Part shown: in pieces, positions 25,600 to 26,107 of the stretch
How positions within the stretch are numbered: position 1 is the first letter of the stretch
Layout: each line of letters starts with the position of its first letter
Source: a phage
Strand: one strand, 5' to 3'
Assembly: GCA_036253495.1 (NCBI GenBank)
Contig: GCA_036253495.1_4125.1
DNA: 64,000 nt
Translations under genes and position numbers: made by a program
Notes under the pieces: generated by a model
Seen by the model: the letters and a program-made list of their open reading frames with translations, nothing else
Told to the model about the DNA's origin: nothing
The model's database searches: none

Positions 25600-26018
25600 A
25601 TGATAACAAAATACATGGAACGTAAAATGTGGGGAAACGAATATAAATCAAAACAAGGAAATATTGGAGTTGCTCGTGCAATAGATTACTATGTCACAAA
25701 TGGTTATTCAGTGTCTATACCCATGAATGATACACAATCATATGACTTGATAGTTGATGATAATATTAAATTGTATAGAGTATCAGTAAAACAACATCAT
25801 ATAAAGCACCATCTGGAAATTATAATGTTCAACTAAAAAATAGTGGTGGTTCTAGCGGTAAAAGTGTTATACGAAATTTTGATAAAACATCGTGCGACAT
25901 ACTGTTTGTGTTGTGTGATAACAACGACATATATATCATCCCAATTGATGACATTGATGCACATTCAGCACTTACATTAACTGAAGAACGTAAGAAATAT
26001 ATTAGAAAATTATATTAA
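25600..26018 (+). pseudogene. PD-(D/E)xK / Hjc-like nuclease gene split by a frameshift at an A4 run (25788-25791)
   Basis: Frame 1 ends ...YDLIVDDNIKLYRVSVK; frame 0 continues TTSYKAPSGNYNVQLKNSGG...DILFVLCDNNDIYIIPIDD to stop at 26018. Confidence 0.5.
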
Positions 26019-26025
26019 AAAATAT

Positions 26026-26107
26026 CCGGGCGTATCTCAACGGTCTTCTAAACCGTCGTTAATCGAGTAACTGGAGTATGCAGGTTCGAGTCCTGTCGCC
26101 TGGGCCA
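26026..26107 (+). ncRNA. non-canonical tRNA-like element (lacks a D-arm; anticodon-like loop CUUCUAA)
   Basis: Acceptor CCGGGCG / CGCCTGG then G and CCA; T-arm GCAGG-TTCGAGT-CCTGT; stem-loop ACGGT-CTTCTAA-ACCGT. Confidence 0.4.

Follow-up and report, generated by a model that had tools for sequence, protein, structure and literature searches.

What is an RNA gene with the outline of a transfer RNA (tRNA), but apparently without a D-arm, directly behind a broken nuclease gene in a phage tRNA cluster? The question is raised by positions 25,600 to 26,107 of a 64,000-nucleotide (nt) stretch of phage DNA (GenBank assembly GCA_036253495.1, contig GCA_036253495.1_4125.1), which is hereafter called the window and whose source is an Asteriusvirus-like jumbo coliphage of the PBECO4/121Q group. 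In this region an interrupted nuclease gene is followed, 8 bases after its stop codon, by an element of 82 nt (26026..26107, encoded CCA included). Judged by comparison with its relatives, the element is probably a functional phage tRNA-Arg(UCU) that reads AGA codons and has a rearranged core.

Architecture of the 82-nt element

Much of the element, which like all of its parts lies on the + strand, follows the ordinary tRNA plan. The 5′ strand of the acceptor stem (26026..26032) pairs with 26097-26103 over 7 base pairs (bp), one of them G·U, and is followed on the 3′ side by a discriminator G at 26104 and the CCA at 26105-26107. The anticodon arm ACGGU-CUUCUAA-ACCGU occupies 26040..26056, with the anticodon UCU at 26047-26049, a 5-bp stem and a 7-nt loop containing U33 and a purine at position 37, and the T-arm GCAGG-UUCGAGU-CCUGU at 26080..26096 has a 5-bp stem and a canonical T-loop. 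These parts and the boundaries of the element had been described in an earlier note made from the sequence, and all of them are present. A canonical D-arm, with a stem of 3-4 bp and a loop of 7-11 nt between the acceptor stem and the anticodon arm, is absent from the element. The Rfam tRNA model (RF00005) scores it at 32.6 bits against a gathering threshold of 29, but only at the cost of a deleted D-arm (15 positions) and a 20-nt insertion in the variable region, and no other family of Rfam 15 fits; a covariance model built from the element's own family gives 98.9 bits. The tRNA-finder check suggested in the earlier note came out negative, as ARAGORN makes no call at the element and reports five ordinary tRNAs downstream at 27076-29191.

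The missing helix becomes apparent when the family is compared. Pairing was counted explicitly and assessed by mutual information, in an alignment of 56 sequences and in a larger set of 130 distinct sequences. Halfway along what had passed for the variable region, columns 40-42 of the alignment (26065-26067) are the partners of columns 11-13 (26036-26038), and none of the pairs 11-42, 12-41 and 13-40 is ever broken in the 56 sequences. Pair 12-41 is found in four types (UA in 34 sequences, GC in 13, AU in 8 and CG in 1) and pair 13-40 in three (CG in 45, GC in 6 and UA in 5), the pairs of this hidden helix rank among the top mutual-information pairs, and the three core pairs are complementary in all 25 of the strand combinations that occur among the 130 sequences. 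The more obvious helices behave likewise, since compensatory changes are seen in the acceptor, anticodon and T stems of the 56-sequence alignment: all seven acceptor pairs covary and 99.5% of their cells are paired, all five pairs of the anticodon stem covary, and of the T-stem pairs three show compensatory changes, one alternates between G-C and G-U and one is invariant. Over the full proposed structure 94.6% of the cells are paired, and its covariation score of 0.794 compares with 0.199 for shuffles, none of 500 of which reaches it, and with at most 0.16 for slid partners. The evidence that the element carries structure beyond chance is comparative and very strong.

In the window, the linker U8 A9 U10, of which the UA is invariant, and strand a of the hidden helix (CUCA) together occupy 26033..26039, and the strand a nucleotides 26036-26039 face strand b (CGAG) at 26064..26067. 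The earlier description, by which the element lacks a D-arm and has a variable region of 23 nt, is correct only superficially, since comparison of 56-130 relatives shows these two strands to form a covarying helix of 3-4 bp, followed by a D-loop-like sequence.

Other foldings were considered and rejected. A small hairpin in the variable region, suggested by single-sequence folding, is given no support by the family. A helix between the linker CUC and the GAG of UGGAG was dropped, as the linker is variable but UGGAG invariant; it is the upstream NNNG that covaries with the linker. Alternative cloverleaves, in which the first hairpin would serve as the D-arm and the anticodon arm would be located in the variable region, offer no 7-nt loop or intact T-arm.

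Between the anticodon stem and strand b lies a conserved 7-nt bulge without a canonical counterpart (CGUUAAU, 26057..26063), whose columns C32, U34, A36 and A37 are invariant in the 56-sequence alignment and invariant or nearly so in the 130 sequences. Strand b is followed by the D-loop-like segment UAACUGGAGUAU at 26068..26079, 11 of whose 12 positions are invariant (the nearly invariant form being UAAYUGGAGUAU). The segment resembles the D-loop AAUUGGAUA of the canonical tRNA-Arg of phage ph0011 and is proposed to supply the equivalents of A14, A15, Y16, U17, G18, G19, A20 and, further on, A21, and then of U48. Because it comes after the hidden helix that encloses the anticodon arm, the predicted structure is one with the D-loop and anticodon arm swapped around the 3′ strand of the D-stem relative to a normal tRNA.

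In such an arrangement the short strand that follows U8-A9-U10 would pass into the anticodon stem without a break, with its partner located 3′ of the anticodon arm and the conserved bulge. The partner strand would in turn lead into the D-loop-like AAYUGGAGUA, a single U and the T-arm. U10·U43, the three Watson-Crick pairs and an A·C layer would stack on the 5-bp anticodon stem to give ten layers, the number contributed in a normal tRNA by the D-stem, the 26·44 pair and the anticodon stem together. Candidate counterparts are retained for U8, A14, A15, U48, G18, G19 and A20, and with them the candidate tertiary contacts U8·A14, A15·U48, G18·ψ55 and G19·C56. An L-shape with a normal distance from anticodon to elbow is plausible because the ten layers match and these counterparts of the core contacts remain.

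Distribution and arginine identity of the family

By blastn the element is recovered at full length from 263 phage records in GenBank, with an identity of 84-100% overall and of 84-91% over 80 of the 82 nt. The phages belong to unrelated groups, which include Felixounavirus (Felix O1, wV8), Sugarlandvirus, Asteriusvirus, Mydovirus, Justusliebigvirus and Kuravirus as well as a T4-like Pectobacterium phage and Streptomyces phages. With the addition of pattern scans of IMG/VR and JGI metagenomes, the family comes to the 130 distinct sequences mentioned above, every one of them 81 or 82 nt long, and wherever the genomic context was inspected the element sits in a tRNA cluster. In 185,579 bacterial and archaeal species, represented by one genome each, there are 3 matches, all on contigs of metagenome-assembled genomes and 2 of them in tRNA arrays, and the family is essentially phage-specific. 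What had been noted as a tRNA-like element with a UCU anticodon is indeed one, although not as a local D-armless oddity but as one copy of a conserved phage tRNA-Arg family. Its members are mostly unannotated or otherwise labelled tRNA-OTHER, TERM, Leu, Met or Val, and ARAGORN misses the family member in 87 of 89 loci. A search of Rfam and of the literature outside subscription journals, including one by the sequence strings of the element, found no description of it, and as far as these sources show the rearranged family has not been described before. A scan of about 0.9 Mb (the window and 100 further loci) with the family's own covariance model, which is sequence-biased, returned arginine members only. 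Among the GenBank records is MG065645.1, Campylobacter phage A145 (146 kb), which has the element at 83.8%, as in E. coli phages of about 146 kb such as Justusliebigvirus muut; its host label may be wrong.

This distribution bears on the simplest explanation of the element, namely that it is a decayed tRNA-Arg or tRNA-Ser pseudogene that lost its D-arm and was left behind by the insertion of an endonuclease. The silence of ARAGORN and an Rfam score barely above threshold would suit such a remnant, as would its position beside a mobile endonuclease gene and an anticodon stem that is the same as in the neighbouring tRNA-Ser(UGA) of phages BF17 and 121Q. However, the identical 82 nt are present in relatives without the nuclease, the length is fixed at 81-82 nt, and compensatory changes are seen in all four helices whether the phages infect Enterobacteria, Streptomyces or environmental hosts. 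Neither the pairing nor the restriction to arginine anticodons would persist in a pseudogene, and the chance that the element is one is considered close to negligible.

The identity of the family is clearly that of arginine at the level of the anticodon. UCU is found in 120 of the 130 sequences, ACG in 5, CCU and UCG in 2 each and ACU in 1, so that 129 of 130 have an arginine anticodon. The bacterial arginine identity set comprises A/G73, A20, C35 and U/G36 (PMC9976931). C35 is invariant in the family and position 36 is U or G in 130/130, in agreement with the anticodon determinants, and the discriminator is G in the window and G or A in 126 of 130 sequences. No variation is seen in the T-loop or in the GGA motif, where the invariant GG of UGGAG is followed by an invariant A that would be the candidate for position 20 in space. 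We infer that the RNA is charged by the host arginyl-tRNA synthetase (ArgRS) via C35, U36, G/A73 and the A after GG, and is then used by the ribosome.

The place of the element in phage tRNA sets points in the same direction. The sister phage ph0011 carries a canonical tRNA-Arg(UCU) at exactly the site of the element and between the same flanks. In 22 loci ARAGORN finds 15 or more tRNAs; none of these loci has a canonical tRNA-Arg(UCU) and 15 have a canonical tRNA-Arg(ACG), and the sole ARAGORN "tct" call among them, in the environmental phage contig L040, is a divergent family-like copy (57 bits). In this copy, which ARAGORN calls as a 98-nt tRNA-Arg, the D-loop-like segment (UAAUUGGAUAGAACAU) is longer and the hidden helix weaker; the copy accompanies a CCU member in the same contig (12999-13080 and 13348-13429). 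Another environmental phage contig, L092, has two members as well, with the anticodons UCG and UCU, at 3788-3868 and 4087-4167. In the window, AGA, a codon rare in E. coli, makes up 20% of the arginine codons in the + strand open reading frames (ORFs). It is the arginine anticodons, the counterparts of the identity set and the place in phage tRNA sets that lead to the assignment as a phage tRNA-Arg(UCU).

An RNA that imitates tRNA-Arg outside translation, either as a decoy or sponge for a nuclease, of the host or of a competitor, that attacks the tRNA-Arg anticodon loop or as a processing or regulatory signal in the cluster transcript, is unlikely but has to be weighed against this assignment. 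The anticodon loop CUUCUAA and the bulge CGUUAAY, a possible protein-binding site, are nearly invariant and the family is confined to phages, all of which would suit a decoy, and phage tRNAs are known to act against tRNA-targeting defences (PMC10264068, PMC11464382, PMC11555353). On the other hand, the CCU, UCG and ACG members each supply an anticodon that is missing among the canonical tRNAs of their own cluster, and the canonical tRNA-Arg(UCU) of ph0011 substitutes for the element allele for allele. Moreover, a pure decoy of the anticodon loop could do without several features that the element retains, namely the 7/5 branch of acceptor and T stems, the discriminator, the CCA and the candidate determinants for ArgRS.

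A functional tRNA-Arg could also have gained from its altered build. On a tentative and rather speculative extension of the assignment, the element would be a "stealth" tRNA, the transposed D-loop and anticodon arm of which leave charging by ArgRS and use by the ribosome intact yet let it escape a factor that attacks canonical tRNA-Arg(UCU). The factor might be a nuclease or a modification or turnover enzyme of the host or of a competitor, and the layout might have moved among unrelated phages with the homing endonucleases that crowd tRNA clusters.

Several observations weigh against the element being a functional tRNA with a rearranged core. Pair 14-39 is mostly A·C or C·A and thus no standard pair, and the hidden helix rests on covariation of two or three pairs only. 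The single-sequence fold of the element is no better than shuffled sequence (z = −0.61), and RNAalifold run on the family returns the three obvious helices only, the hidden one not being predicted by energy. Many of the family sequences are closely related, so that the cell counts overstate the number of independent events, and both the equivalents assigned to the D-loop-like segment and the geometry of the L are deduced from sequence. One metagenome member has the anticodon ACU (loop CUACUAA), which would read the serine codon AGU, and keeps the arginine determinants C35 and U36; it is possibly a mutated ACG or UCU copy or a missense decoder. Finally, contig L088 carries a canonical tRNA-Arg(UCU) beside a family member, and the two forms are therefore not strictly exclusive.

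It is commonly assumed, also in the design of gene finders, that elongator tRNAs outside mitochondria require the canonical cloverleaf. The family described here has a different chain topology, which hundreds of phages have conserved, the classical Felix O1 among them, and it apparently works with ordinary bacterial ArgRS, EF-Tu and ribosomes. If this is true, an L-shape can arise from another connectivity, and the layout would provide both a new framework for testing the recognition of A20 by ArgRS and a ready scaffold for tRNA engineering. It would also imply that tRNA-Arg(UCU) is systematically under-annotated in phage genomes, distorting analyses of codon usage and tRNA complement, and would make it a testable question whether the altered core shields phage tRNAs from tRNA-targeting defences.

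The interrupted nuclease gene and its surroundings

The gene in front of the element is read in two frames on the + strand. In frame 1 it ends with ...YDLIVDDNIKLYRVSVK (...YRVSVK) at 25791, and in the −1 frame it continues from 25791 as TTSYKAPSGNYNVQLKNSGG...IRKLY to a TAA stop at 26016-26018, the frame break lying in a run of four A residues at 25788..25791. Joined, the N-terminal part (25615..25791) and the C-terminal part (25791..26018) give a protein of 134-139 amino acids that matches the Pfam family PDDEXK_5 (PF11645) with E=1.6e-21 and 77.2 bits against a cut-off of 26.1, and also phrog_5018. Its closest solved relative is I-Ssp6803I (PDB 2OST), with E=5e-5 and an alignment that spans the shift site. 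The frameshifted PD-(D/E)xK nuclease reported in the earlier note, with its switch in the A4 run, is thus confirmed, whereas its likeness to Hjc is not, since the PDDEXK_5 and 2OST matches make the protein I-Ssp6803I-like. The ORF reported to begin at 25600 is open from there, and the ATG at 25600 is in frame in the window but out of frame in the orthologue of phage WPEC5; the start codon is likely 25615, as annotated in WPEC5.

The same orthologue is informative as to the nature of the break. It is intact, with five A residues in place of four, and is 95.9% identical to the window copy in nucleotides and 98.5% in amino acids. The 16 nucleotide substitutions in the coding region resulted in 2 amino-acid changes, which suggests that the protein was under selection until very recently, and all three indels between the two sequences within 25560-26025 are differences in the length of A runs. 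A wider comparison of homopolymer indels over 40 kb of WPEC5, intended as a test of sequencing quality, was uninformative, the genomes being just 72-92% identical. At the break the sequence is GUA AAA CAA, in which no slippery heptamer X XXY YYZ is found. With the intact A5 orthologue, the recent selection, the A-run indels and the missing heptamer, the A4 run is best taken as a recent inactivating deletion or a homopolymer sequencing error and not as programmed recoding. Of the options raised in the earlier note, a pseudogene and a sequencing indel accordingly both stand; the third, a programmed frameshift, falls with the uninterrupted frame of WPEC5.

That third option, by which the A4 run would be a site of transcriptional slippage or of programmed −1 frameshifting by the ribosome and so yield the nuclease, has some mechanistic appeal, as tRNA-Lys on the AAA at 25789-25791 could re-pair with the AAA at 25788-25790, and both half-ORFs are open and together encode a complete domain. 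It is nevertheless very improbable. The sole orthologue is in a single frame and shows no conserved shift, the X XXY YYZ heptamer is lacking, and changes in A-run length such as those that make up all three indels are typical of slippage in replication or sequencing. Four A residues are also far below what transcriptional slippage needs.

The gene has the distribution of a mobile element. Among GenBank phages it is found, besides the window, in WPEC5 only (2 of the Asteriusvirus-like genomes seen), 8 relatives match just the 38-nt flank upstream of it, and a tRNA-Ser(UGA) stands in its place in BF17 and 121Q, where the flanks are the same. The nuclease cassette has evidently taken the place of tRNA-Ser(UGA) exactly, and it is by such a scattered occurrence, at a site that close relatives leave empty or fill with something else, that free-standing homing endonucleases are usually recognized. 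A putative sigma-70-like promoter found by consensus scan (TTGGAA-18-TGnTATAAT, that is, an 18-nt spacer and a TG-extended TATAAT) lies at 25563..25592 on the + strand and is kept upstream of tRNA-Ser in BF17 and ph0011. It would precede a slot of two genes, the first being tRNA-Ser(UGA), as in most relatives, or the nuclease and the second the 82-nt RNA. With the cassette in place (25593-26025 in the window, corresponding to 2098-2197 in the BF17 locus L002), the window has no tRNA-Ser(UGA) and only a tRNA-Ser(GCU) at 27624, despite the fact that TCA makes up 30% of the serine codons in its ORFs.

Nucleases are found near the rearranged tRNA-Arg in other phages as well. Distant homologues of the present one (45-52% amino-acid identity) lie 0.6-0.9 kb from it in UPEC06 and Klebsiella K54-type phages, and in Sugarland and phages of the Felix O1 type it is directly adjoined by HNH endonuclease genes. 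In Sugarland (L004, 1199-1798) the HNH gene begins 9 nt downstream of the tRNA, and several Felix O1-type records have an "HNH endonuclease" annotated across the element. The rearranged tRNA-Arg thus repeatedly has homing endonucleases of differing folds as its direct neighbours, and this may be how it came to be shared by unrelated phages with about 90% identity. The relevance of the window's nuclease itself is limited to that of an example of homing-endonuclease turnover inside a tRNA cluster.

The tRNA-Ser(UGA) next to the rearranged tRNA-Arg shares its anticodon stem and flanks (CAACGGUCUU..AAACCGUCG) in BF17 (L002, 2104-2279) and 121Q (L038, 2616-2791). In ph0011 (L003, 1821-1988), which has the canonical tRNA-Arg, the anticodon stem of tRNA-Ser is different (CUUGU/ACAAG). 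The two tRNA genes seem to have been exchanged as one cassette or to have undergone gene conversion.

Further features surround the slot. Four paralogous ORFs of about 55-58 amino acids that start with MTHEEW(L/I) or MTHADWL flank it at 24500-24676, 26130-26297, 26294-26458 and 26455-26619; three of them form a tandem overlapping array, where relatives annotate three hypothetical genes of 165 nt. Strong predicted sigma-70-like sites (TTGACT, a spacer of 16-17 nt, TATAAT or TAAAAT) are present at 26630-26657, 27039-27066 and 27589-27617, and because the latter two lie directly upstream of tRNA-Gly (27076) and tRNA-Ser (27624), they suggest that single tRNAs or small groups each have a promoter of their own.

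Comparison with known homing endonucleases and tRNAs

T4 SegB is a free-standing GIY-YIG homing endonuclease in a phage tRNA cluster. It resembles the window nuclease in being a mobile gene in a variable slot of such a cluster and present in few relatives, and differs from it in fold, GIY-YIG as opposed to PD-(D/E)xK; homing of the window nuclease is a prediction. The solved protein closest to the window nuclease, I-Ssp6803I (PDB 2OST), is the PD-(D/E)xK homing endonuclease that belongs to the tRNA-fMet intron of Synechocystis. Both proteins are members of the PDDEXK_5 family and are associated with tRNA genes, and the D...xK motif aligns (SYDLIVDD...RVSVK in the window and SYDLVFDV...KVQVK in I-Ssp6803I), with S in the window nuclease where I-Ssp6803I has Q. 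In contrast to I-Ssp6803I, the window gene is frameshifted, free-standing outside any group I intron, and replaces a whole tRNA-Ser gene.

Of the unusual tRNAs described so far, those nearest to the element are the D-armless tRNAs of mitochondria and the allo-tRNAs, and both differ from it in kind. Like the phage RNA, D-armless mitochondrial tRNAs such as bovine mitochondrial tRNA-Ser(AGY) (PMC9976931, PMC4394434) form no D hairpin from position 10 to 25, have on paper a three-way junction instead of a four-way one, and read AGN codons. The element nevertheless does not belong to this mitochondrial-type class, which has no D-stem equivalent and has lost the elbow nucleotides: in the phage RNA the helix 11-13/40-42 covaries as the equivalent of the D-stem, and a GG resembling G18 G19 and a canonical T-loop are retained, both of them invariant. 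It also must use ordinary bacterial ArgRS, EF-Tu and ribosomes in place of co-adapted mitochondrial factors, would carry arginine instead of serine, and has no evolutionary link to the mitochondrial tRNAs. The allo-tRNAs of the (8/4) or (9/3) type (PMC5389517) are likewise non-canonical; they came to light in the mining of metagenomes, occur in tRNA clusters of bacteria and their phages and are overlooked by standard tools. In these the split between acceptor and T stems is altered and the D-arm is normal, whereas in the phage family the 7/5 split is unchanged and it is the D-arm and the anticodon arm that are rearranged.

A further comparison is with canonical tRNA-Arg(UCU), represented by E. 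coli argU and the ph0011 allele. First, the 7-bp acceptor stem, the UA after it, the 5-bp T stem, the T-loop UUCGARU, the anticodon loop CUUCUAA, G or A at position 73 and the encoded CCA are common to both. Next, the D-loop-like AAYUGGAGUA of the element has its counterpart in the AAUUGGAUA of ph0011, with which slot and flanks are shared. The difference lies in the order of the chain, since in the element the strand after U8-A9 would enter the anticodon stem, with its partner strand and the D-loop sequence following the anticodon arm, and an extra bulge, CGUUAAY, takes its place in a core that has neither a closed D hairpin nor an ordinary variable loop.

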